Source: a phage
Length of the DNA stretch: 40,118 bases
Sequence record: PZ379598.1
Reading direction: 5' to 3' (one strand)
This document shows, one piece after another, positions 2,625-40,118 of the stretch (position 1 is the stretch's first letter; each line of letters opens with the position of its first letter). The notes under the pieces are model-generated. The model worked only from the letters and a program-made list of their open reading frames with translations. It did no database searches and was not told the origin of the DNA. The position numbers were made by a program, and so were the translations under genes.

Positions 2625-3054
2625 ATAGTCCCTCCAGCATTAGGTCCCGGACAGCGATAGACTCCTCTAAAGTGGGACGTGTTGTTCGCATATAGGCATT
2701 CCCGCGTTTAACCTGAATCCTATAACCATTCTGGTGACGGGTAACGCACTTCACTCCTGTCTTAGAGTCATAATGGCTACCAGTATTCCAAGTGTTTTCA
2801 GCGGCAGTAACGAGCCGTAAGTTACTTAAGGTATTATTGCTAGGGTTCCTGTAGATGTGGTCTATTTGCATACCATGCGGTATAGGACCATTGGTTAGTT
2901 CCCATATCACACGATGGGCCCGCTTACTGCCTAGACTTCGTGTCTGTACTATCCAATATCCCATCCGACTTAATGTTCCCACAGGCTTTCCAGTCCTAAC
3001 GGAGACCAGACCGGATGGACTAGCCGGGTCCACTTTGTAGTAATCACTTAACAC
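2617..3054 (-). CDS. HNH homing endonuclease
   Basis: 145 aa with an HNH core ([41 protein letters not shown]); overlaps the spanin 3' end and the terminase start. Confidence 0.8.
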
Positions 3055-3496
3055 CTTGGAGCCTCCTTATTGTGTCCTGAAGCGCCTTCTCCTTAAGGTC
3101 TGCCTCCTGAGTTAATCGGATAAGACTTTTAGAAGTTTCTGGGTGTAGTTCGACTCTACCATTAGGGAAGCATCTACTGACATCTGACTCGGTGAGACCT
3201 GAGGTGTTGACTCGGACGCGCAGCCGCTTGTTATCGCGGTTAAGGTCAGCAATAATCCTATCAGTAGAGCCTTCCAGCGCGGACATCTTGTCTTGCCACT
3301 CGGCTGACACTTTGTTGATTTCACCTTGGACAGCAGCCCGTTGATTCTCTCGTGCCTCAAGTTTCGTGATGTACTCATTGTTTACCTTCGCCTCCCACTT
3401 ATTGTCTGCCACCCAGTAGCCAGAACAGAACAGGAGTCCTGCAACCAGCCACGGGATTGCTTTACGTAAAAGTTCGAGCATAGTTGCCCTCCTCAT
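3044..3496 (-). CDS. gp18.5: i-spanin (Rz-like, T7 gp18.5-like)
   Basis: 150 aa; N-terminal membrane anchor then coiled-coil; matches recalled T7 gp18.5 (LRKLIPW..AG.LF, EGSTDRII.DL..DNKRLRVRV, LQDTIR.LQ). Confidence 0.9.
   Translation of the reverse strand: MRRATMLELLRKAIPWLVAGLLFCSGYWVADNKWEAKVNNEYITKLEARENQRAAVQGEINKVSAEWQDKMSALEGSTDRIIADLNRDNKRLRVRVNTSGLTESDVSRCFPNGRVELHPETSKSLIRLTQEADLKEKALQDTIRRLQGVK
3112..3378 (-). CDS. gp18.7: o-spanin (Rz1-like) embedded in the +1 frame of the i-spanin gene
   Basis: Embedded ORF with a hydrophobic stretch followed by a lipobox-like TSGC and a Pro/Ser-rich tail; embedded Rz1 architecture is typical for T7. The true start is probably downstream of the ORF-track start. 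Confidence 0.65.
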   Translation of the reverse strand: MSTSRNLRHERINGLLSKVKSTKCQPSGKTRCPRWKALLIGLLLTLTAITSGCASESTPQVSPSQMSVDASLMVESNYTQKLLKVLSD

Positions 3497-3540
3497 TTCT
3501 CAGAATCCACGTAGCGTCTCCGCCCGTAGTGTGTGTTAAC

Positions 3541-3580
3541 CATAAAGGCCACTACATATAGTAATGACCTTGAGTCTAAC
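3541..3580 (-). promoter_or_regulatory. Putative RNase III processing hairpin (R18.5 position)
   Basis: One of three copies of a conserved element (minus strand ...GACTCAAGGTCATTACTATATGTAGTGGCCTTTATG); resembles the recalled T7 R1.1 hairpin. It sits between small terminase and the spanin gene. Confidence 0.6.
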
Positions 3581-3582
3581 AC

Positions 3583-3846
3583 TTACTGTACACCATACCC
3601 GGTGTCGTTATCCTCAGTAGCTGAGAGCACCTTATCGTACTCCCTGTTCAAAGCCTCCATATCAGCGAGCGTCTTCTCGTCAACAGACACCTTGCTTAGC
3701 ACGAAGTTGTGACGAGCCAGTAGCTTCTCAATGGCGTTGTAAAGCTGAGGTGAACGCTTAGAGTCATCCCGCAGGTCTTGCAGCATGAGTCTAGCACGTT
3801 CAGTATCCAGCATCAAGAGGAACTTCTCTAAGTCCATCTGCGTCAT
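3583..3846 (-). CDS. gp18: Terminase small subunit (T7 gp18-like)
   Basis: 87 aa; matches recalled T7 gp18 (F..MLDT, RSPQLYNAI.KLL.RH.F). Confidence 0.85.
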   Translation of the reverse strand: MTQMDLEKFLLMLDTERARLMLQDLRDDSKRSPQLYNAIEKLLARHNFVLSKVSVDEKTLADMEALNREYDKVLSATEDNDTGYGVQ

Positions 3847-4375: not shown

Positions 4376-6903
4376 TTAGACATAACAGCTAATGCTTCCT
4401 GCATACGCTTAATAGTACGCCGCATCAACGCAGCCTCTAATATCAGTACTTCCTCGTAACGAATACCGTAGCGGGAACCTGCTGGTGTAATCAGTTTACG
4501 AGAGCCATTGGCATCTTCCTCGTATACATCATCCCAACTGTCGAAGCACAGGAAGCCATAGCTATGTGCATCTATACCGTGACGTTCGAAGGCCTCCTTA
4601 GCTCGCTGAGCGATGATGCCGAAGTGCCATCTAGCTGAGTCTGCACCCTTCTCCTCAATTCGGTCCAAGTACTGAAACTGCACAAAGTCAACTTCAGACC
4701 AAGCATCCAGTAAAGCATCTGAGATATTAAGAGGCTCTGTTTTATCCCTAGCATCTGAGACAACAGTGAATGCTGATTGAGTAAAACCGCCAGACCATGC
4801 TCGACTTGCGGAACCTAATGCGTATGTATTAGTACTATCTGGGGTCATTGCATCAGAACCTAACTGCAAATAACCTGTGCTACTGGTAGGAAGACGCACG
4901 TTGCCGTTGGTGAGGGACACTGTCCGATAAATACCATCAGAAGTAAATAGTCGAACTTGAGAAGATGCACCACCACCTACAGCTAATGACACAGCACCAT
5001 CCCCAAGCATTCTGTACTTATCAGCAGAAGTAAGAACGCCTGAAGGGAGTGACATGGACTTAATCCGCCATTCGAACCTACCTGACATACTACCTATGTA
5101 CTGCCCTAAGGCAGGTGCGTGCACTACGTTACTATTACTAGTGCCGTCAATAGTAGCTGCACCGTCAATAGTACTAACAGAACTGAGAAGGTCGTTTCTC
5201 CTGCCAGGGTGTTTTACCTCTACGAAGTTACGGGTAGAGCCGGATTCGAAAGTAATAACACCTGTAGCACTGTAGCTAGGAAATACAGACGCATAGTTGT
5301 TATTAGCTGTACCTATAAAGCGTGCAATTGTAGCAGTCTGCCCTTGTCCTGAAGAGTTAGTACCATCACATCCTGACATAAGCACATTATTTATGACGTT
5401 ATCAGACCCTTCTACGGTAACGCCATGAGCCTGATTAGCATCAGAAGTTGAGTAATCTACGAGCACGTCTGAGATTAAGTTCGTATTTCCTTTGCCTGCA
5501 ACAACCGCTGCATACTTAGGGTTATTAGCCATCACCCCCTTTATAATGTTATTAGAAGGAGCTATTGGCCCTTCAGTGCCGTTGTAAGTTACATGCTGGC
5601 AATCTGCCCCTATAACATTACTGACTATGTTGTAACTGGCTGTACCTTTCAACTCTACTGCTCCGAACTGAGGGTAGTTCTTAGCAATAACGTTATCTAT
5701 GAGGGAGTTAACTGAGGAGTCAGCAAGTACGCATCCGGCTGCCTTATTAGTAGCATAGCCGGAATAGCCACCTCGAATGCCTTTAATCATAAGTCCATCA
5801 GGTGGCGCATCATTAGGGTATGCGATTAAACTGAAACCAGTACCTTTAACGTTTGAGAAGTTAACGTCACTTACAGTAACATCGCTTCCACCCGCAAGAG
5901 ATACCTGCTGTCCCTGAGTTGTATCAGTCGCCTTATTACTTTCTACCGTAATATTACTTAAGCGACCTGTACGTGGATTGTTAAATACTAAGTAGTTACC
6001 TGTACTGGAACGGTGACTTAGCACGCCACTACCCCTACCGTCTAAGTTACAGTAATTACTATTAATACCAGAACTAGAGAATACACCTTCTGATGCTACG
6101 ACAGCTTTTTGAGAATTTAGTGAAGCAGCTATATTCTCCGTACTATCTGTTACACCATCCCCTTTAGCACCCCAGCCTCGAACATCACCCTCATCACGCC
6201 ATCTTGCCATCTGCAATTCCGGGTAGAGTATTGCCCCTTCCGGGTTTGAAATCTGACTTCTTAAAGCAGCATCACCAACACTAACCCACGCACCTAATCC
6301 AATCCCACCGGAAGTTTCAGGAGTTGAACCAGCAGGAACGTTCTTTGGAAGCGTACCATCCCAGCGGTAATAATCACCATCCTCTTCCCATAGCAGGACC
6401 TCGCTCCATGTTGTAACGTTGTAGCCTTTCTCGAAGGAGCGACGGGTAATATAGCCAATTAGACCAGCTTCCCTGATACTCGCAGCGATTCGGCGTGCTT
6501 CGTCCTCGCTATCCTTAGCGTTGCCAGCAGAGCTACCAGCAGCATCGGCATATTCCTTCGCTAAGTCAACCGTTTGGTCTCGACCTTCTTCTGCAATATG
6601 GATAGCCTGAAGCTCTGAATTGGTCAGGTCACTAGCTGTCAACACTGAGCCATTCCTGAAATCTACCACTAAGTCAGTTCCAGTCTGACGGTGAATACGA
6701 ACTATGTCGAAACCTGATTGGTCAACCAACATCTCAATCATCGTTGGATTAAGGAATCGGTAATCTCGACCAACTTCCAGTACACGGTTCAGGGTAGGGT
6801 TAGAGCTATTCACCAGCGTAACAACAACAAACGTTCTGGCTAGGTAGTCGAACTCAATCCTGTACTGAGTGTTTCCTGAAGGGAATTGTGTAATCGTGGA
6901 CAT
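4372..6903 (-). CDS. gp17: Tail fibre / tailspike: gp17-like N-terminal adaptor, central beta-helix (putative polysaccharide depolymerase), C-terminal intramolecular chaperone (peptidase S74-like)
   Basis: N-terminal ~150 aa match recalled T7 gp17 (EYLAR.FVVVTL, DYRF, LVDF.NGS.L.A.DL). The central region has repetitive N..I.NV..G beta-helix-like segments. The C-terminus has SDARDK (Ser-x4-Lys) and HFGIIAQRAKE resembling S74 chaperone motifs. Confidence 0.85.
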   Translation of the reverse strand: MSTITQFPSGNTQYRIEFDYLARTFVVVTLVNSSNPTLNRVLEVGRDYRFLNPTMIEMLVDQSGFDIVRIHRQTGTDLVVDFRNGSVLTASDLTNSELQAIHIAEEGRDQTVDLAKEYADAAGSSAGNAKDSEDEARRIAASIREAGLIGYITRRSFEKGYNVTTWSEVLLWEEDGDYYRWDGTLPKNVPAGSTPETSGGIGLGAWVSVGDAALRSQISNPEGAILYPELQMARWRDEGDVRGWGAKGDGVTDSTENIAASLNSQKAVVASEGVFSSSGINSNYCNLDGRGSGVLSHRSSTGNYLVFNNPRTGRLSNITVESNKATDTTQGQQVSLAGGSDVTVSDVNFSNVKGTGFSLIAYPNDAPPDGLMIKGIRGGYSGYATNKAAGCVLADSSVNSLIDNVIAKNYPQFGAVELKGTASYNIVSNVIGADCQHVTYNGTEGPIAPSNNIIKGVMANNPKYAAVVAGKGNTNLISDVLVDYSTSDANQAHGVTVEGSDNVINNVLMSGCDGTNSSGQGQTATIARFIGTANNNYASVFPSYSATGVITFESGSTRNFVEVKHPGRRNDLLSSVSTIDGAATIDGTSNSNVVHAPALGQYIGSMSGRFEWRIKSMSLPSGVLTSADKYRMLGDGAVSLAVGGGASSQVRLFTSDGIYRTVSLTNGNVRLPTSSTGYLQLGSDAMTPDSTNTYALGSASRAWSGGFTQSAFTVVSDARDKTEPLNISDALLDAWSEVDFVQFQYLDRIEEKGADSARWHFGIIAQRAKEAFERHGIDAHSYGFLCFDSWDDVYEEDANGSRKLITPAGSRYGIRYEEVLILEAALMRRTIKRMQEALAVMSK

Positions 6904-18020: not shown

Positions 18021-19339
18021 TTAGTTTGTGAAAGATACGTTGAAGGAACGCACAGGCGTACCGTCATACCCAACAATCACCAGACCTTCCACGCCAGAGG
18101 TGGCCTTGAAGTAGAGACTGTTGGTTCTACGGGAGTAGCTAACACCATCAGGCGTAGTCACCTCAAGCAGCGACCAATCGGTCACATCTGAAAGCTCAGG
18201 GAAGTCAACCTTCAGGCTGGTTCCCACCGTAGAACTATACGTCTCTAAGGTAGGACCCTCTGTAGAGAGGGCCTTAAAGGTCGTTAACCCGCTTTCGCCG
18301 CTGTGAAAACCAGTGCGCCTGCTGCTTCTGGACGCAGACCACCGTGACCCATAGCGTACTTACCAACAATCAGGTCGCCCTGAGCATCGACGTCACGGTC
18401 ACGTTCCAGCGCCAAGTCACGCAGCTTAACAGTACCTACAGCAGAACGGTGAGAGAACAGGCCCACAACGTTGTCCAGAGCAACTTTAACATCACCAGTA
18501 GCAGTAGCAGTAGCTGGGAAGGCGTGCTTCTGACCAGTCGCAATAGTGATACCATCGGCACCACGAGTTTCCCCAGCACCACCCTGAGTCAAGTGTGGAA
18601 CTTCAACAACCACGAAGCCCATTACGTTACGGATGTTACCAGTCTCTGGGTCAATCAGCGCAGCATAGTTAGCAGCGTTCGGCATCAGAGCCGCGAGGAT
18701 TGCAGAGTAGTTGTCCGGCGTGGTGTAGAAGTAACGGTCGCCAGCAGGAACGTAGTTGGATGTCAGCTTCGCACGAGCAATGGTCAGTTGACCGATGATT
18801 GCTTCACCCAGCTTAGCCGGAGTGTTCAGGTCTGCTTTAGTACCAACTTCCAGCACAGACGCTTTGCCAAGACCAGCGATGTTTTCATCAGATGCAGCCG
18901 GTAGGTTACACAGAATAGCCATCTCAGCCAGTACCGCACCATCGGCAGCGATAGCCAGAGCTTCGCCCAACTGGTTGGAGTACTCGCCAGCCACGTCATA
19001 GTGGTTCATCGCGTCTTCAATGTCGAAAATCATCACATCGGCAGTCAGCAGACCATCAATGGTAATCACTTTCTCGGTATGTTTGATACCTTTACGCTTA
19101 TCGGACAGTCGCTCACCCGGAGCCAGATACACACCAGAGGTGCGACCCATGACCGGGAACTGAGCAGACTTACCGTTCTGAATGGTACGGACAATATGCT
19201 TGTCAGCAGTTACAGAGCGGCGAGTGAATGCTGTCAGGACTTCGCCAGCAAAGACCTTCAGGAACAACGCCAGAGCGTCGGAACCAGATTTGCCTTTACC
19301 TTGGTCTGTACCAACTTTCTGACCCGGAACGTTTGCCAT
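18021..19339 (-). CDS. gp10B: Minor capsid protein 10B produced by -1 programmed frameshift
   Basis: The 10A frame contains G GTT TTC (plus strand 18305-18311) 8 codons before its stop, the same heptamer I recall for the T7 gene 10 shift site. The -1 frame is open from there to 18021, adding about 95 aa and joining the 68-aa track ORF 18021..18227. Confidence 0.7.
18284..19339 (-). CDS. gp10A: Major capsid protein (T7 gp10A-like)
   Basis: 351 aa; strong identity with recalled T7 gp10A (LALFLKVF.GEVLTAF, KSAQFPV.GRT, HTEKVITIDGLLTADV, NAANYAALIDPE.G.IRNVMGF, RSAVGTVKLRDLALER, KYAMGHGGLRPEAAGA). Confidence 0.95.
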   Translation of the reverse strand: MANVPGQKVGTDQGKGKSGSDALALFLKVFAGEVLTAFTRRSVTADKHIVRTIQNGKSAQFPVMGRTSGVYLAPGERLSDKRKGIKHTEKVITIDGLLTADVMIFDIEDAMNHYDVAGEYSNQLGEALAIAADGAVLAEMAILCNLPAASDENIAGLGKASVLEVGTKADLNTPAKLGEAIIGQLTIARAKLTSNYVPAGDRYFYTTPDNYSAILAALMPNAANYAALIDPETGNIRNVMGFVVVEVPHLTQGGAGETRGADGITIATGQKHAFPATATATGDVKVALDNVVGLFSHRSAVGTVKLRDLALERDRDVDAQGDLIVGKYAMGHGGLRPEAAGALVFTAAKAG

Positions 19340-27235: not shown

Positions 27236-27258
27236 GGTTAATCCTCCGTTTAGTCTAA

Positions 27259-27299
27259 TCATAAAGGCCACTCTATGTGAATGACCTTGAGTCTAGACC
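27259..27299 (-). promoter_or_regulatory. Putative RNase III processing hairpin (R4.7 position, before the DNA polymerase gene)
   Basis: Minus strand GACTCAAGGTCATTCACATAGAGTGGCCTTTATGATTAGAC: a 10-bp stem with G-U pairs, nearly identical to my recollection of the T7 R1.1 core (AAGGUCAUUCGCAAGAGUGGCCUUUAUGAUUGACC). Confidence 0.65.
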
Positions 27300-27499
27300 T
27301 AGAAGTCTGTACGCAAGAAGTGGTACATAAACTTCCGGTTAGCTTTCTTCCATGCCTTAGAGTCGAACCTCTGGTCTCCCAGAATGTTGGACAGGAAGGT
27401 TGCTTCATCGCTCCACCATTTGTACATGAACCGATGGTAGCGAGCTTTAAGTTTCTTAAACACTAATGGTGTCCTCCGTATGGTGACTTCCAATCGCAC
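27299..27499 (-). CDS. Hypothetical basic protein (56-66 aa), gene 4.x position
   Basis: ORF between primase-helicase and DNA polymerase; Lys/Arg/Trp-rich (KARYHRFMYKWW). Probable start is the internal GTG at about 27469 with GGAGGA 8 nt upstream. Confidence 0.5.
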   Translation of the reverse strand: MRLEVTIRRTPLVFKKLKARYHRFMYKWWSDEATFLSNILGDQRFDSKAWKKANRKFMYHFLRTDF

Positions 27500-34216: not shown

Positions 34217-34249
34217 ACGGTTAAATCTCCAGTAGTGTTTATTTAGGGT

Positions 34250-34293
34250 TAATCATGAAGGCCACGACTTTGAGTCATGACCTTGAGTCTAAT
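34250..34293 (-). promoter_or_regulatory. Putative RNase III processing hairpin (R1.1 position)
   Basis: Minus strand GACTCAAGGTCATGACTCAAAGTCGTGGCCTTCATGATT; third copy of the conserved element, in the leader between the phi1.1-like promoter and gene 1.1. Confidence 0.6.
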
Positions 34294-34313
34294 CCTATAG
34301 TGATAGTTTAGGG
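34294..34313 (-). promoter_or_regulatory. Phage RNAP promoter (phi1.1 analogue)
   Basis: Plus-strand CCTATAGTGATAGTTTAGGG. Confidence 0.8.
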
Positions 34314-34859: not shown

Positions 34860-37541
34860 TTAAGCGAATGCAAAGTCTGAAGACAAGATGTCTTCGATAT
34901 TCAGTTTACCTTTCTTCGGAAGCTCAGGCAACTTGTCTCTCTGGCTCTCGTGAAGCTGGTATTCAAACTGCTCGTAGAAGTCAAGCAGCACATCGTTGTC
35001 GCGGTATGTCTCGACCATCGTCTCACGGACTCCACGGAACAGATACTCAGCGTCAGCCGGGATGGTCCCGAAGCTATCGTGAATCACTGCGAATGACATC
35101 ACGCCATATTTGCGGTGCGTGTGGACTACAGTCTTGCGGAGGTGGCTACCATCTTGTGAGTGGACGAAGTTCGGGCTAATGCCTGACTCCTGCTTGTGCT
35201 TGTCCAGCTCTTTCTTCGTGCCTTTGTTGACGGTAGGCTGAAGGTTGAATGACCCTAAGAACATCAGGTTCAGACGAGTGGTGTCCTTCTTGCGGTATTC
35301 CTGCCAGACAGGGAAACCATCAGGTGTGACCCAGTGTACCGGAAGACAAGGCTTCAGGATTTCTCCAGTCTTCTTGTCCTTCACTTCAGCAGCAAGCAGC
35401 TTGGCAGCACCCTGAAGCCATTTCATCGCGTCAACCGCAGCAACTACGGTCACACTCACAGCTTCCCAAATCATCTTAGCCATGAAGCGAGATGCTTGGC
35501 TTGGTTCAGTGAACATAGCGCCAGACCCTGAGTCAATCGCTGGCATCACGATGTCCTCGTAAACTTGGTCTGCGAAGCCGTACTCTTTCGACCCGTAGGC
35601 CAGAGTCATGACCGAACGCTTAGTGACCTTTCGTGACATACCGTAGGTCAGCCACTGACGGGCAAGCTCTCGTGTCCCCAGCTTGAGACGCTCGGTAATC
35701 TCACCAGTTTTCTTGTCCTCGTGAGTTACCATCTCGTTGTCCGTACCGTTAACCAGTAGGACTTTAAGCTCCTCCTCAATGCGGTCAGACACGATGCGGT
35801 AGATGTCTTGGACCTTACCGGATGGCGTCAGGTTTACTGCATGTCCACCGATGTGGTCGCGAAGCATAGCGCTGAAGTGCTGAATCCCAGAGCAGGACCC
35901 ATCGAACGCTATCGGCAGCGAGCAGGAGTAAGACAAGCCGTGGTGCATTACGCCAGCATACTCGAAGCAGAACGCTAGGAAGCAGAACGGAGAGTCTAAC
36001 TTGCCCCACCACTCAATGCTATCCATCGGTGCCTTGGCAGCAGCCATGATGTTGTCGTGGTTATCTTCCACCCACTTGATACGCTCCTCGAAGGTGACTT
36101 TATCGACACCCGCGCAGTTTGCACCGTGGACCTTCAGCCATTTGAAACCATCAGCACCAATAGGCTTACCGACTGCCAGAGTCAGAAGACCCTTTTGCAT
36201 GTCGTTACCCTGAGGGTTGAACATCGGCACAGCGTAGACGCGACCGCGCCAGTCCATGTTATACGGGAACCAGATGGCCTTGAACTGAGAGAACTTGTTC
36301 GCTTGGTTGACGATAAAGCTCAGTGACAATCTTCGTGACTGTCTGGCCTTCTCGCGGCGATAGATACCAGCAGCAGCCTTCTTCCATGCCTTGAGTTCTT
36401 CTTCAGTCTCACCCGCATAGTCCTCAGGCTTCAGCGGTTCCATCTGAGGGATGTCATCAATAGGCGTGTTGTTCAGCTTCTCGACCATGTTCACCACTTC
36501 CAGAACCTTCTTGTTCACTTTCCAAGGTGTATTCTGAATGATGTTCACAGCGTCATAGACTTCAGGCATATACACGTCTTCGTAGCGTGCTACCGCAGAC
36601 TTAGACCCTAAGCGAATCAGTGGTAATGGTCTGCGTCCTTTGGCCCAGTACCCACCGCCTACGACACCAGTCCACGGCTTAGGTGGAACGACGCAAGGCT
36701 GGTAGACTGGAGCTATACCCGCAAGGCTGAATCCTCGTTGTGCCATCTTCTTGACCCAGAAGTCTGACAGGTGGACCATCTCAACGTCAGCCGCTGCATT
36801 GCCAGCACCGTAACGCTTAAGCTCGACCAGTTGTGTGGACTGGATGACAATCTCCAGCATCTTGATTCCAACGTGGACAGCCTCGGTCGGACTCCAAGTC
36901 CCCCACGCATCTTCCAGTTGGCCTTGCTCCAGCATGGATGCCTCGACCGCTTGCATGTAGGCTTTCTTGTAGGACGCCCCGGCCCGCTTATTCAGGTTAT
37001 CAGCTATCGCCTTCTTGAAGTGCTCTTTCTCCTTGTCACGGATGCGACCGAAGCGGATTTCGTCCTCAAGTGTGCGACCTATCGCTGAGGCCATCGGTGT
37101 AATCGGTATCCCTTCAGGCTTGACCAGCTTGGAGAGTATGACCTTCAGTATGATAACCGCAGCAGACTCGCAGGAGATGCGCAAAGAGCGGACCTTTACG
37201 GCCTTCTCTTCAGTGCTCAACATGGTGAACGCTACGCTCGGACGAGAGGTTGACAGCTTCCCGTCTGGACCTTCATGCCACTCCTTGACGGCTTGCGCAA
37301 TCTTAGGGACCAGAGTCTGCATCAAAGGCTTGGCGACCTGATTGTCTGCCAGTTCCCCTCGCTCAGTCTGTCTCTCAAGGTTCTTGATGAAACGTCGCTC
37401 GCCTTCAGTGTATGCCTCGTGCTCAAGCTGAAGCTGTTTGACTGCAAGGTCTTGCCCGTAGTGGTCAGCCAGTAGGTTAAACGGCTCAATGGCGTTCGAC
37501 ACATCAGAGAAGTCGTGCTTGTCAATAGAGATGACGCTCAT
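34860..37541 (-). CDS. gp1: Single-subunit DNA-directed RNA polymerase (T7 gp1-like)
   Basis: 893 aa; colinear with recalled T7 RNAP from the N-terminus (DFSD...PFN.LADHYG, LEHE.Y..GE.RF) through the C-terminal FAFA. Confidence 0.97.
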   Translation of the reverse strand: MSVISIDKHDFSDVSNAIEPFNLLADHYGQDLAVKQLQLEHEAYTEGERRFIKNLERQTERGELADNQVAKPLMQTLVPKIAQAVKEWHEGPDGKLSTSRPSVAFTMLSTEEKAVKVRSLRISCESAAVIILKVILSKLVKPEGIPITPMASAIGRTLEDEIRFGRIRDKEKEHFKKAIADNLNKRAGASYKKAYMQAVEASMLEQGQLEDAWGTWSPTEAVHVGIKMLEIVIQSTQLVELKRYGAGNAAADVEMVHLSDFWVKKMAQRGFSLAGIAPVYQPCVVPPKPWTGVVGGGYWAKGRRPLPLIRLGSKSAVARYEDVYMPEVYDAVNIIQNTPWKVNKKVLEVVNMVEKLNNTPIDDIPQMEPLKPEDYAGETEEELKAWKKAAAGIYRREKARQSRRLSLSFIVNQANKFSQFKAIWFPYNMDWRGRVYAVPMFNPQGNDMQKGLLTLAVGKPIGADGFKWLKVHGANCAGVDKVTFEERIKWVEDNHDNIMAAAKAPMDSIEWWGKLDSPFCFLAFCFEYAGVMHHGLSYSCSLPIAFDGSCSGIQHFSAMLRDHIGGHAVNLTPSGKVQDIYRIVSDRIEEELKVLLVNGTDNEMVTHEDKKTGEITERLKLGTRELARQWLTYGMSRKVTKRSVMTLAYGSKEYGFADQVYEDIVMPAIDSGSGAMFTEPSQASRFMAKMIWEAVSVTVVAAVDAMKWLQGAAKLLAAEVKDKKTGEILKPCLPVHWVTPDGFPVWQEYRKKDTTRLNLMFLGSFNLQPTVNKGTKKELDKHKQESGISPNFVHSQDGSHLRKTVVHTHRKYGVMSFAVIHDSFGTIPADAEYLFRGVRETMVETYRDNDVLLDFYEQFEYQLHESQRDKLPELPKKGKLNIEDILSSDFAFA

Positions 37542-37614
37542 ACTTAAAGTCCTTGTTATTAGTCTTTCACTTAAAGTCTCTTTGGTCTTTCACTTGGAGT
37601 CTTAGACCTTGAGT

Positions 37615-37633
37615 CCTATAGTGATAGTTAAGT
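37615..37633 (-). promoter_or_regulatory. Phage RNAP promoter directly upstream of the RNAP gene
   Basis: Plus-strand CCTATAGTGATAGTTAAGTC, about 75 nt upstream of the RNAP start codon; the leader contains two copies of AGTCTTTCACTT. Confidence 0.7.
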
Positions 37634-37638
37634 CAGAA

Positions 37639-37965
37639 TTACTTGCATATCAGCGGGTTAGCGTGGAGATGACTGAAGTCACCATGAGTCGTGTGCTTGA
37701 TGGTTGACCGTTGGTCTATCGCCTTCCATCCTGAGACTAAAAGTTTACCATCGTCAGTGATTGGTCGTCCACCATACACCAGACACATTAGTTCGGACTT
37801 ATGGCCCTCAGCCCGTAGTCTTGCTTGCAGTACCCGGTCCCGCTCCTGCTGTTGACGTGCGGAGTGACTTGACGTTCCGTGACGATACCCGGTAGCCAGT
37901 AGGCTTAACATTTGCATGTCTGCGTCCATAGAGTGTACCAGATTAATCCCGTATGACTTGTTCAT
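37639..37965 (-). CDS. Hypothetical early protein (108 aa)
   Basis: ORF whose ATG overlaps the upstream stop (TAATG); contains His-rich segments (HGTSSH, HTTHGDFSHLH); no confident family assignment. Confidence 0.6.
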   Translation of the reverse strand: MNKSYGINLVHSMDADMQMLSLLATGYRHGTSSHSARQQQERDRVLQARLRAEGHKSELMCLVYGGRPITDDGKLLVSGWKAIDQRSTIKHTTHGDFSHLHANPLICK

Positions 37966-38168
37966 TACAGTTTGCTCCCAAGTGTTGCTATATCCCAGAC
38001 GTTCGCTAAGTTACGCATGAATCGTCCGTTAGGTTGACGTACAGTCCAGCTACCCAGACGTACATATTTGAATTTGTAGACTTTACGCGCTTTGTTGATG
38101 TCTCTCACCAGCACGTAGGCGATAAGTCCATAGCCTATGGCTATCAATAGTGCGATACTCATAGTCAT
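37965..38168 (-). CDS. Small membrane protein (67 aa), early region
   Basis: MTMSIALLIAIGYGLIAYVLV... with one predicted transmembrane helix; its ATG overlaps the stop of the upstream 34-aa ORF (ATGA). The track reports a 124-aa ORF (37965..38339) starting at a GTG with no ribosome-binding site. Confidence 0.55.
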   Translation of the reverse strand: MTMSIALLIAIGYGLIAYVLVRDINKARKVYKFKYVRLGSWTVRQPNGRFMRNLANVWDIATLGSKL

Positions 38169-38269
38169 AAGCCCCATAACAGTTGAGTAAGGACCGGTAG
38201 TTTGCAGACTAGAGTAAACATTCCCCACACTACGAAGCCTGAGATAGTCCAGATGATTGCAGTGCTCAT
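38165..38269 (-). CDS. Micro membrane protein (34 aa), early region
   Basis: Hand-found ORF MSTAIIWTISGFVVWGMFTLVCKLPVLTQLLWGL with AGGAG 6 nt upstream of the ATG; hydrophobic throughout; in the +1 frame relative to the 124-aa track ORF. Confidence 0.5.
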   Translation of the reverse strand: MSTAIIWTISGFVVWGMFTLVCKLPVLTQLLWGL

Positions 38270-38401
38270 AGTTAACTCCTATCAATGTAAGTGGTAATCT
38301 TTGAGGCCACCTATCAGTCGATGACCTCTCGTCTATCACTCAGTACCATCACGTCAGTGTTATGGTCAAGCTATGATTTGGTTCTCTCCTGTTTATTTAG
38401 G

Positions 38402-38629
38402 TTACTCGCCGTCTCCTTCTGTAAGGCTATCGTCTATTAATTCAAATTTACCGTTTGAGTGTTGGATAGCCTCTTGTCCGCAATGGTCGCAAACCACCAG
38501 TTTATCGAACCCGTCAAACTCGTCACCTGCTACGCAAGAAAGTACGAATTTATGATTGGTGCATACTTCTTGCGTTTCACCGAAAATTGCTCGAAAACCT
38601 TTGGTTATGGCACCAGTGATTGTGTTCAT
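38402..38629 (-). CDS. Hypothetical Cys-rich early protein (75 aa, possible zinc ribbon)
   Basis: ORF with GAGAGGGAAG upstream; four Cys (C-x8-C ... C-x2-C) and an acidic C-terminus; preceded by the same 21-bp leader motif as the Ocr-like gene. Confidence 0.65.
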   Translation of the reverse strand: MNTITGAITKGFRAIFGETQEVCTNHKFVLSCVAGDEFDGFDKLVVCDHCGQEAIQHSNGKFELIDDSLTEGDGE

Positions 38630-38841
38630 ATCTTCCCTCTCAGTTGTTAATGACTATCAGTCAGGCCACCAGCATTGATGACCTGTAGTCTGTCACTTAG
38701 CGTGTAAACTGTCGTGTATACGCTTGCGTCTCCTGTAGACCACTTTCAAGAGACGCATAGCCCAATCGTGGTCTAACTGCCCGGTCTTGACCATAAGCCG
38801 GGCGTTAGTGACGTGGTGCTGGCAGAGGCCATAAGTTACCA

Positions 38842-39345
38842 TCACTCGCAGTCCTCAGCAGCAGGGTCAAACACTACGTTATCATTGATGTCTTCCACCT
38901 GAAGGTGGCGACCTATCACATAGTTGACCTTGGCACATGCAGTAGCGACCTCAAGAGCTACAGCTTGCACAATTATTGCGCCTGTTTTAGCGTCAACTAC
39001 CCAATATTCATCCTCTTCGTCTGCCTCTTCATCCTCAAACCAGACTACATCCAAGCTATTAGACACGTCGTTATAAAGTGCCTCATAGATGCGAGCTTGT
39101 AGGATACGCGTTACGTCCTTGGTTTCAGGTATCATCCCAGAGTCTTCGAACTCGTTGTCTATACCATCAGCAGCCATCACCGTAAAAATCTCGTGGTAAT
39201 AGTGTGGAACCTGACCGTCTACGACCTCATGCAGCGCATCGCTGTAGTCGTCATCTTGAGTCAGGTGGTCGTACTGAATACGCTCGATAAATGCCTCAAC
39301 GGTTGCAGCCAGCAGCTCATAGTATGCGTTAGCATTACGTTCCAT
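38842..39345 (-). CDS. ocr: Ocr-like DNA-mimic anti-restriction protein (T7 gp0.3-like) with C-terminal extension
   Basis: 167 aa; residues 1-110 align with recalled T7 Ocr (NIRYDD..D.DD..DA.H...[35 protein letters not shown]); very acidic; about 50 extra C-terminal residues. Confidence 0.85.
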
Positions 39346-39379
39346 AGTTATATCCTCTCAAAGTTAATTATGTGTTAAT

Positions 39380-39470
39380 GACTATCAGTCAGGGCCTTCA
39401 GATGTAGACTCAAAGGCCCTGTAGTTAGTCGCTATCGGCGCACATTAAGAGTTTATCCAGATTGTTAAAG
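39380..39470 (-). promoter_or_regulatory. R0.3-like RNase III processing region in the early leader
   Basis: Minus strand contains CTCTTTAACAATCTGGATAAACTCTT, closely matching the recalled T7 leader CTCTTTAACAATCTGGTAAATAGCTCTT, followed by a perfect 9-bp hairpin CAGGGCCTT...AAGGCCCTG. Confidence 0.6.
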
Positions 39471-39535
39471 AGCATTCCCTTCAGTCAGAGGACTTCAGGT
39501 AGACCATTCAGTGTTGGTCATCACCGTTGTTTCGA

Positions 39536-39574
39536 TGTGGTACATATTACTTTAAGTCGTTACTGCCTGTCAAC
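39536..39574 (-). promoter_or_regulatory. Host sigma70 early promoter (T7 A3-like)
   Basis: Minus strand TTGACA - 18 nt - TAATAT followed by GTACCACATCGAAAC, paralleling the recalled T7 A3 promoter (TTGACA ... TACGAT GTACCACATGAAAC). A weaker TTGACT-containing candidate lies at about 39675-39715. Confidence 0.65.
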
Positions 39575-39789
39575 TACTTTCTGTCGGTTGCCTGTTGTTC
39601 GTATGTCTTACAGGCTGACTACTTAACCGGACCGGTCCGGCGTCTTCACTATCCGGTTGTTGCCGTGTCGTGTTGACGGAAGCTATTAGGCCATAGTCTG
39701 GACCTATAGTCAATAGGTAATTCGAAATAATATTGATTAAGCTATCGTCGGCCCCATGGTGTAAGAGGATATAGTCTTTGACTAACATG

Positions 39790-39960
39790 TCTTAGACCTT
39801 AAGTCTATAGCCTTGTGTCTATTAACTGTAGGTCTATGACTGTAGGTGTTGGTGTCTTATGGTTGAGACTGTAGGTTAGTGAGACTGTAGGTTATGACTT
39901 ATGGTTGTGAGAGGTAGGCTGTGACCTATGGTTGTGACTTATGGTTATACAGATAGAGAC
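39790..39960. repeat. Array of short repeats next to the terminal repeat (CTGTAGGT and TTATGGTT units, about 4 copies each)
   Basis: Tandem short repeats lie between the early promoter region and the terminal repeat, analogous to the CCTAAAG-type repeats at the T7 left end. Confidence 0.55.
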
Positions 39961-39967
39961 TCAAAGA

Positions 39968-40118
39968 AGACCAATAGTCCCTGCCTATCGTCCTTCCCTA
40001 AGCCATAGCCACAACCTATCGTTGACCTGAAGTCTTGACCATCGGTCTAACCTTATGATATACTGGGGTAGGGCCTTTGGTCTGGACTGAAAGATGGCCT
40101 ATGGGGGACTTGAGGTTC
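39968..40118. repeat. Direct terminal repeat, copy at window end
   Basis: Identical to bases 1-151; the repeat may extend beyond the window edge. Confidence 0.9.

Follow-up and report, generated by a model that had tools for sequence, protein, structure and literature searches.

The window analyzed here, the whole 40,118-nucleotide stretch of sequence record PZ379598.1, is 99.5% identical in the region of interest to Escherichia phage LM33_P1, and 224 phage records matched this region, mostly from Kayfunavirus, the K1F-like relatives of T7. Bases 1-151 are 100% identical to bases 39968-40118, giving direct terminal repeats of 151 bp. All long open reading frames near the locus, as well as all 11 phage-type promoters, lie on the minus strand; the genome is thus presented in reverse, and the repeated motif described below has to be read as minus-strand RNA. 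Judged by its sequence, the window is a complete linear K1F-like (Kayfunavirus) genome whose sequence is the reverse complement of that in the usual map. Beside the terminal repeat, positions 39800-39960 contain dense short direct repeats (CTGTAGGT, TATGGTTG and variants), which presumably resemble the repeat array near the T7 left end.

The early genes and the hairpin sites between them are listed in the direction of transcription, followed by three further hairpins of the same fold and, for each feature, the evidence on which its assignment is based.

39544..39573, minus strand: sigma-70-like promoter (TTGACA-18-TAATAT) located before site A, from which the early transcript may start (consensus scan only)
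39371..39437, minus strand: site A, RNase III-type hairpin preceding ocr and corresponding to T7 R0.3 (fold, covariance model R1, T7 alignment, covariation)
38842..39345, minus strand: the anti-restriction gene ocr (gene 0.3), which comes first after site A (Pfam PF08684, E 7.4e-29; phrog_2568)
38643..38701, minus strand: site B, RNase III-type hairpin between a 50-aa ORF and the 75-aa Cys-rich ORF (model R1, folds)
38402..38629, minus strand: 75-aa Cys-rich ORF following site B, for a phage protein that is conserved but without known function (phrog_32657, E 1.7e-53)
38284..38344, minus strand: site C, RNase III-type hairpin preceding the 34-aa ORF and closely homologous to T7 R0.5 (model R1, comparison with T7 nt 1425-1484, fold)
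38165..38269, minus strand: 34-aa hydrophobic ORF downstream of site C, ribosome-binding context UAGGAGUUAACUAUG (ORF list)
37614..37629, minus strand: first phage-type promoter in the direction of transcription, AACTATCACTATAGGA (promoter scan)
34239..34300, minus strand: site D, same fold, T7-type 3' arm GGCCUUCAUGAUU, directly behind the phage promoter 34293-34308 (model R1, fold, promoter scan)
27246..27304, minus strand: site E, same fold, GGCCUUUAUGAUU, shortly before the DNA polymerase gene; compare T7 R4.7 (model R1, fold)
3526..3587, minus strand: site F, same fold, GGCCUUUAUGGUU, between the gene 18-like ORF (3583-3846) and a 150-aa ORF (3044-3496) (model R1, fold)

The 34-aa ORF, which had no family match in Pfam/PHROG-type searches and is absent from the LM33_P1 annotation, has a strong ribosome-binding site and a stop codon that overlaps the start of the next gene (AUGA); from its sequence it is probably a gene for a small membrane protein.

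A sequence-only reading of this DNA had described a leader motif in two identical copies, each about 20 nt upstream of the start codon of an early gene, and both the number and the spacing are borne out by the present analysis. The 21-mer TGTTAATGACTATCAGTCAGG occurs exactly twice on the plus strand of the whole window, at 38645-38665 and 39373-39393, with no other window match at up to 3 mismatches, no match in 100 dinucleotide shuffles and 0 matches expected; the positions originally given, 38646-38664 and 39375-39393, locate both copies correctly and are too narrow by 1-2 nt. In mRNA sense the motif reads CCUGACUGAUAGUCAUUAACA, the genes being on the minus strand, and its end lies 27 nt (ocr, AUG at 39345) or 15 nt (Cys-rich ORF, AUG at 38629) ahead of the start codon, for which "about 20 nt" is a fair description. 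A search of IMG/VR returned the motif in only 17 stretches from 16 contigs, all of 39-40 kb and with 1-3 copies each. The degenerate third copy that had been proposed in front of the 34-aa ORF is real as an exact 9-mer, GACUGAUAG (38311-38319, minus strand), but has a different structural role, being held in the apical loop of site C (38319-38311) rather than in a stem arm. This 9-mer has 5 copies in the window versus 0.6 expected, 3 of them in the early region, and its presence in the apical loop of the R0.5-like hairpin is conserved across several relatives.

Minimum-energy folds of the sense strand show that at both A and B the 21-mer is the 3' arm of an irregular hairpin of ~60 nt, consisting of a lower stem, an asymmetric internal loop and an upper stem, the 5' half of which lies 35-50 nt upstream of the motif. 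At site A the lower stem is formed by UAGCGACUA (39434-39426) and UAGUCAUUA (39384-39376), that is, GACUA/UAGUC extended by UAG/UUA, followed by the internal loop ACUA/ACUGA and by an upper stem, CAGGGCCUU.../...AAGGCCCUG, which begins at the pair C39421-G39390; the 21-mer corresponds to 39393-39373. At site B, where the 21-mer corresponds to 38665-38645, AGUGAC (38697-38692) pairs with GUCAUU (38654-38649) in the lower stem and CAGGUCAUCA (38685-38676) with UGGUGGCCUG (38671-38662) in the upper stem. The motif is not self-contained, since it makes up only the 3' half of the ~60-nt structure. An intrinsic terminator was considered for these hairpins and rejected: no terminator-like sites were found in 37400-40118, and the sequence behind the hairpins is AUUAACA, with no run of U.

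The palindrome TGACT-ATC-AGTCA, which had been regarded as the folding unit of the motif, is present within the 21-mer, and it would allow the motif to act alone, as a local hairpin UGACU-GAU-AGUCA that forms a protein-binding site or translational operator in two early leaders, an arrangement with which the identity of the 21-mer at both sites and its proximity to the ribosome-binding sites would agree. However, the energy predicted for this 5-bp hairpin is -3.2 kcal/mol versus -23.4 (A) and -19.3 (B) kcal/mol for the long hairpins, and its predicted pair probability is at most 0.0005. In the relatives the palindromic positions are paired in 65.3% of cases compared with 64.0% in shuffled controls, with no excess covariation, and homologous sites such as CUGAAAGAUAACCAC and CUUUAUGAUAUUCAC are not palindromic although the long-range pairing is kept. 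The palindrome is not the folding unit but a by-product of the loop sequence ACUGA adjoining the stem strand UAGUC, given the lack of excess pairing in the relatives, and an operator acting through it is extremely improbable.

The long hairpin was assessed in 41 fetched loci encoding Ocr relatives, nearly all of which have the same hairpin topology upstream of ocr with differing sequences. In A2, a MAFFT alignment of 15 sites from which the L018-type and L044 sites (1 nt out of register in alignment A1) were left out, 95.2% of the cells of the long hairpin are paired and 9 of its 18 pairs are changed on both sides, a result reached in 0 of 500 shuffles; slid controls on the same alignment gave 27-50% paired. 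The lower stem in particular is found as GACUA/UAGUC, GGUUA/UAACC, GAUUA/UAAUC and GAUAU/AUAUC, all of which preserve pairing through compensatory changes. For 59 distinct sites from 42 loci the paired fraction is 94.7%, with compensatory changes in 12/18 pairs, in an alignment that was fitted to the model and hence leans to the model's structure by construction. Covariation thus supports the long hairpin and not the local palindrome.

The RNase III sites of the T7 early mRNA are textbook examples of phage RNA processing, and the trait that characterizes signals of the T7 group, an irregular hairpin of about two helical turns, is present here, with the same dot-bracket topology as T7 R0.3. The T7 sequence before genes 0.3 and 0.5 has the same architecture (GGAUA-ACU-CAAGGG...CCCUU-UAUGA-UAUUC), and a MAFFT alignment with T7 R0.3 (nt 850-906) and R0.5 (nt 1425-1484) places the window sites in register with these, column by column. 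Site A occupies the same slot as T7 R0.3, between the host promoters and ocr, and shares with it a 9-bp interrupted lower stem, a 4/5-nt internal loop and an upper stem, all aligned without register shifts, as well as a GAU, which follows the cut in R0.3 and the predicted cut in site A. The differences from R0.3 are a 3' internal loop of ACUGA rather than UAUGA, a first upper-stem pair of C-G rather than A-U, a longer upper stem (12 bp with a bulge) and a lower stem of GACUA/UAGUC in place of GGAUA/UAUUC, the last being a compensatory difference. Site C matches T7 R0.5 nearly base for base in both arms (GAGUGAUAGAC...GGUC // GUGGCCU...GAUUAYCACUU), but has CAAAGA instead of UUAUGA in its 3' loop and carries GACUGAUAG in the apical loop. 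The upper-stem core of R0.5 is common to site B as well, which differs from R0.5 in that this type of upper stem is joined to the 3' arm of site A. T7 R1.1 belongs to the same fold class, its proximal/middle/distal box core GGUCAU/GUGGCC is shared by sites B and C, and it lies behind phi1.1A much as site D lies behind a phage promoter; cleavage of R1.1 is proven (PMC4858673), whereas the cuts in the window sites are predicted. The T3 site R0.3, compared by its reported position, is found in the same genomic slot, between promoter A3 and gene 0.3 (PMC3276506).

The window and T7 were both scanned, filters off, with a covariance model (R1) built from A2, an alignment that leaves out sites B and C. 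The best window match is site A (67.9 bits, E 7.6e-14), followed by B (48.2 bits, E 3.9e-9) and C (44.6 bits, E 2.8e-8), as well as by three further sites, D (36.1 bits, E 3e-6), E (35.0 bits, E 5.6e-6) and F (34.4 bits, E 7.7e-6). All six lie between ORFs, and every match at E<1e-5 is on the sense strand, both in the window (6/6) and in the relatives' loci (61/61), with no antisense match in the window better than E 3.4. The 150-aa ORF next to site F occupies the position of T7 gene 18.5, making site F syntenic with T7 R18.5, as sites D and E are with R1.1 and R4.7. Sites D, E and F carry a T7-type arm, GGCCUUUAUGAUU, and not the 21-mer; the 21-mer is accordingly specific to the early sites A and B, and the fold class extends genome-wide. 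The suggestion that the motif is restricted to early leaders thus holds, on a genome-wide count, for the 21-mer itself, but fails for the wider fold class, of which three members lie in the middle and late regions.

In T7 the model finds the gaps before genes 0.3, 0.5, 1.1, 4.7, 6.5 and 18.5 at E<=1e-6, with R1.1 (nt 5845-5903) scoring 39.4 bits; the gaps in front of genes 1 and 1.3 give weak matches. These eight inter-gene gaps, only two of which were in the seed, correspond to 8 of the 10 places named R0.3 to R18.5. We take the T7 hairpins so matched to be mapped cleavage sites, an assumption that draws in part on PMC4858673 (five early sites; R1.1) and in part on Dunn and Studier (1983); the T7 cleavage coordinates that we assume from the latter source (890, 1468, 5887 and 36856) each fall at UUUAU^G within model matches, which serves as a consistency check only. 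The T7 GenBank tables NC_001604 and V01146 list promoters and terminators, and no RNase III features. An equivalent of T7 R1 upstream of the RNA polymerase gene (37541-37640) gave no match at E<=10, and T7's own R1 scores just 18.7 bits. The T7 match before gene 6.5 (18499-18579) needs a 24-nt insertion in the apical loop, and the annotated promoter phi6.5 (18545) lies inside the span of the hairpin. A scan of the whole window with Rfam gave no family at gathering score, which says nothing either way because Rfam apparently contains no model of T7 RNase III sites. Near-matches to GACTGATAGTCA at up to 2 mismatches number 18 in the window versus 5 expected (for example at 791, 1180, 2161, 7869 and 33110); several have the form GACTGGTAGT(C/A), they occur on both strands, 2 of the 18 represent the duplicate in the terminal repeat, and none coincides with a covariance-model match.

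Judging from the fold, its covariation and its homology with T7, this Kayfunavirus genome very probably has at least six T7-type RNase III processing signals, in two of which the 21-nt motif forms the 3' arm. Among the functions that the sequence-only reading had offered for the motif (processing, translational control or protein binding in the early transcript), processing is the one that this evidence supports. The hairpins most likely are cleaved in the manner known from T7, where the early precursor of ~7,000 nt is processed co-transcriptionally at five sites (PMC4858673, PMC3867540) and where R1.1 is cut at one bond, to 47-nt and 13-nt products (PMC4858673). Internal loops confine cutting by RNase III to a single strand, and a hairpin that protects the 3' end is left behind (PMC1540722, PMC3867540).

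The cut positions were predicted by mapping the uR1.1 numbering (PMC1540722) onto the alignment columns, which puts the cut 2 nt beyond, on the 3' side, the final position opposite the upper stem; the cut geometry of T7 R1.1 (PMC4858673) maps to UUUAU^GAU. The predicted cuts are ACU^GAU in A (U39387/G39386) and B (U38659/G38658), and AAA^GAU in C (A38300/G38299, CCUCAAA^GAUUACC). Directly after the predicted cut, an unpaired G and then an A are found in 59/59 sites, followed by U in 58/59. The base-pair rules for RNase III substrates require G-C at pb1 and A-U or U-A at pb2, where G-C and C-G are excluded (Pertzev and Nicholson, 2006; PMC1540722). The equivalent of pb1 (columns 20-109) is indeed G-C in 58/59 sites, and that of pb2 (columns 19-110) is A-U in 44 and U-A in 15 of the 59, and never G-C or C-G. 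At pb3 the T7/uR1.1 consensus is A-U, and substitutions there weaken RNase III binding of the minimal substrate (PMC1540722); the equivalent pair departs from this, being C-G in A and B, G-C in C, and one or the other of these in 49/59 sites. The distal box (UA then UG) is canonical in B and C (A-U, U-G), while site A deviates with C-G and U-A. Owing to the pb3 pairs and the distal box of site A, the efficiency of cleavage is uncertain, and the ACUGA loop, in place of UAUGA in T7, makes the exact bond uncertain as well. The box rules derive from the minimal substrate, so that departures from them lower the predicted efficiency and do not exclude membership of the class. A search of the accessible literature gave nothing specific on RNase III in Kayfunavirus or in the early regions of T7-like phages, and no cleavage or transcript-end data for this phage or for any Kayfunavirus.

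These departures bear on the alternative that RNase III binds the hairpins yet cleaves them inefficiently or leaves them intact, and that they serve as 3'-end stabilizers or as binding-only regulatory sites. Sites that are competent for binding and resistant to cleavage have been described (PMC1540722), and the C-G or G-C pairs at pb3, together with the non-canonical distal box of site A, are of the kind that reduces the binding of a minimal substrate. Against this, the strongest antideterminant, G-C at pb2, is seen in 0/59 sites and pb1 has its G-C in all but one; GAU is invariant behind the predicted cut; the upper-stem core of site B, GGUCAU/GUGGCC, is exactly that of T7 R1.1; and full-length natural substrates bind RNase III more tightly than the minimal one (PMC1540722). 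A binding-only role for the hairpins is consequently judged very improbable.

The arrangement of promoters places the early sites in a transcript of the host enzyme. Sites A-C lie downstream of the sigma-70-like promoter (39573-39544) and upstream of the first phage promoter (37614-37629), and the promoter scan, with 11 matches that are all on the minus strand, gave none at coordinates above 37629; sites A-C would thus be present in RNA made only by the host polymerase. By the layout of ORFs and promoters, the sites are intergenic, on the transcribed strand and inside a polycistronic transcript. The phage-type promoter at 37614-37629 is perfect and lies ~75 nt upstream of the RNA polymerase gene, while the promoters annotated before gene 1 in T7 are phiOL and host promoters only. 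With a phage promoter in front of it, the polymerase gene here may, as far as its sequence indicates, be transcribed by its own product.

In the mechanism proposed for the processing signals, host RNA polymerase would start at ~39540 on the minus strand, proceed toward lower coordinates and produce a single polycistronic RNA of the early region, and in this RNA each signal would fold into a hairpin of ~60 nt with an upper stem of 9-12 bp, the internal loop ACUA/ACUGA and a lower stem of GACUA/UAGUC plus UAG/UUA. E. coli RNase III would bind about two helical turns, and the internal loop would restrict the cut to the 3' strand, 2 nt 3' of the upper stem and directly before the invariant GAU. 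These cuts would divide ocr, the Cys-rich gene and the downstream genes into separate mRNAs; the upstream product would retain the hairpin as a 3'-terminal block against exonucleases, and the downstream mRNA would start with pGAUAGUCAUUAACA..., leaving predicted leaders of 41 nt for ocr and 29 nt for the Cys-rich gene. In the leader of ocr, UUAACUUU (39360-39367, minus strand) lies just before the Shine-Dalgarno sequence and presumably resembles the "epsilon" translational enhancer in the T7 gene 10 leader. The modeled probability that the ocr Shine-Dalgarno sequence is unpaired rises from 0.03-0.21 before the predicted cut to 0.2-0.87 after it, whereas site B is little changed overall and site C changes in the opposite direction. 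The accessibility modeling is too model-dependent to bear out a general activation of translation by cleavage, and sites A, B and C disagree.

The present findings are unannotated Kayfunavirus homologues of the T7 R0.3/R0.5-type RNase III signals, which are ordinary features of a T7-like phage, and their main value is one of correct annotation. An RNA-processing feature is annotated at the hairpin in 0 of the 60 records listed, out of 192 deposited phage records that contain it, and the K1F record has only CDSs annotated. The sites and their predicted cuts would define the true 5' and 3' ends of the mRNAs of ocr and its early neighbors, which matter for the engineering of K1F-like therapeutic phages and for reading their transcriptomes. 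The Kayfunavirus variant, with a C-G pair beside the loop and an ACUGA loop, also provides a natural test set for the specificity rules of RNase III.

The 3' arm that contains the 21-mer is also the place at which the early regions of these phages differ. Among the relatives the A-type 3' arm, CCUGACUGAUAGUCACUAAC, shows almost no variation, in contrast to the upper stems, which form several families; the near-invariant early arm in Kayfunavirus reads CCUGACUGAUAGUCAYUAAC, and the sequences of the relatives diverge directly after ...CACUAAC. LM33_P1 has two such sites upstream of ocr, separated by an 84-aa gene (gp02). The window is otherwise colinear with LM33_P1 but lacks one cassette of ~315 bp (noted at 776-1062 of the LM33_P1 locus, L002), made up of a leader, gp02 itself and the upstream portion of a second hairpin. 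The two BLAST segments between window and LM33_P1 have 28 nt in common (window 39374-39401), and this overlap lies precisely at the shared arm, so that the breakpoints fall inside the repeat. In other relatives 1-3 tandem hairpin-leader-ORF units are found, with three different small genes. The arm of site A in the window has U where the site A arms of LM33_P1 have C, which makes it identical to that of site B; this U arose either by point mutation or by conversion.

The position of the breakpoints, and the relatives with their 1-3 tandem cassettes and sequences that diverge immediately behind the arm, would also fit a repeat that functions mainly at the level of DNA, as a short homology mediating cassette recombination or as a scar of it, with no RNA function of its own. 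Such a repeat would not give rise to compensatory changes with a partner strand 35-50 nt away, to a strict bias for the sense strand (6/6 in the window, 61/61 in the loci) or to homology with the inter-gene sites of T7, and recombination is more plausibly a secondary consequence of functional sites being repeated; a purely DNA-level role is very improbable. The same observations, together with the mosaic look of site B, the differing sets of cassettes and the 1-3 copies per genome, suggest a reading in which the near-invariant 3' arm of the processing signals doubles as a recombination joint for the gain, loss and reshuffling of small early cassettes (host-takeover, anti-defense), each of which would bring its own processing signal and leader. 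This reading is tentative, somewhat short of an even chance; if true, it would offer a simple mechanism for the rapid turnover of early anti-defense genes. Four relatives (L008, L009, L011 and L013) have other cassettes at the same joints, and the second site of LM33_P1 (L002 1035-1095) has two copies of GACUGAUAG at a spacing of 15 nt, one located in the loop and the other in the 3' arm.
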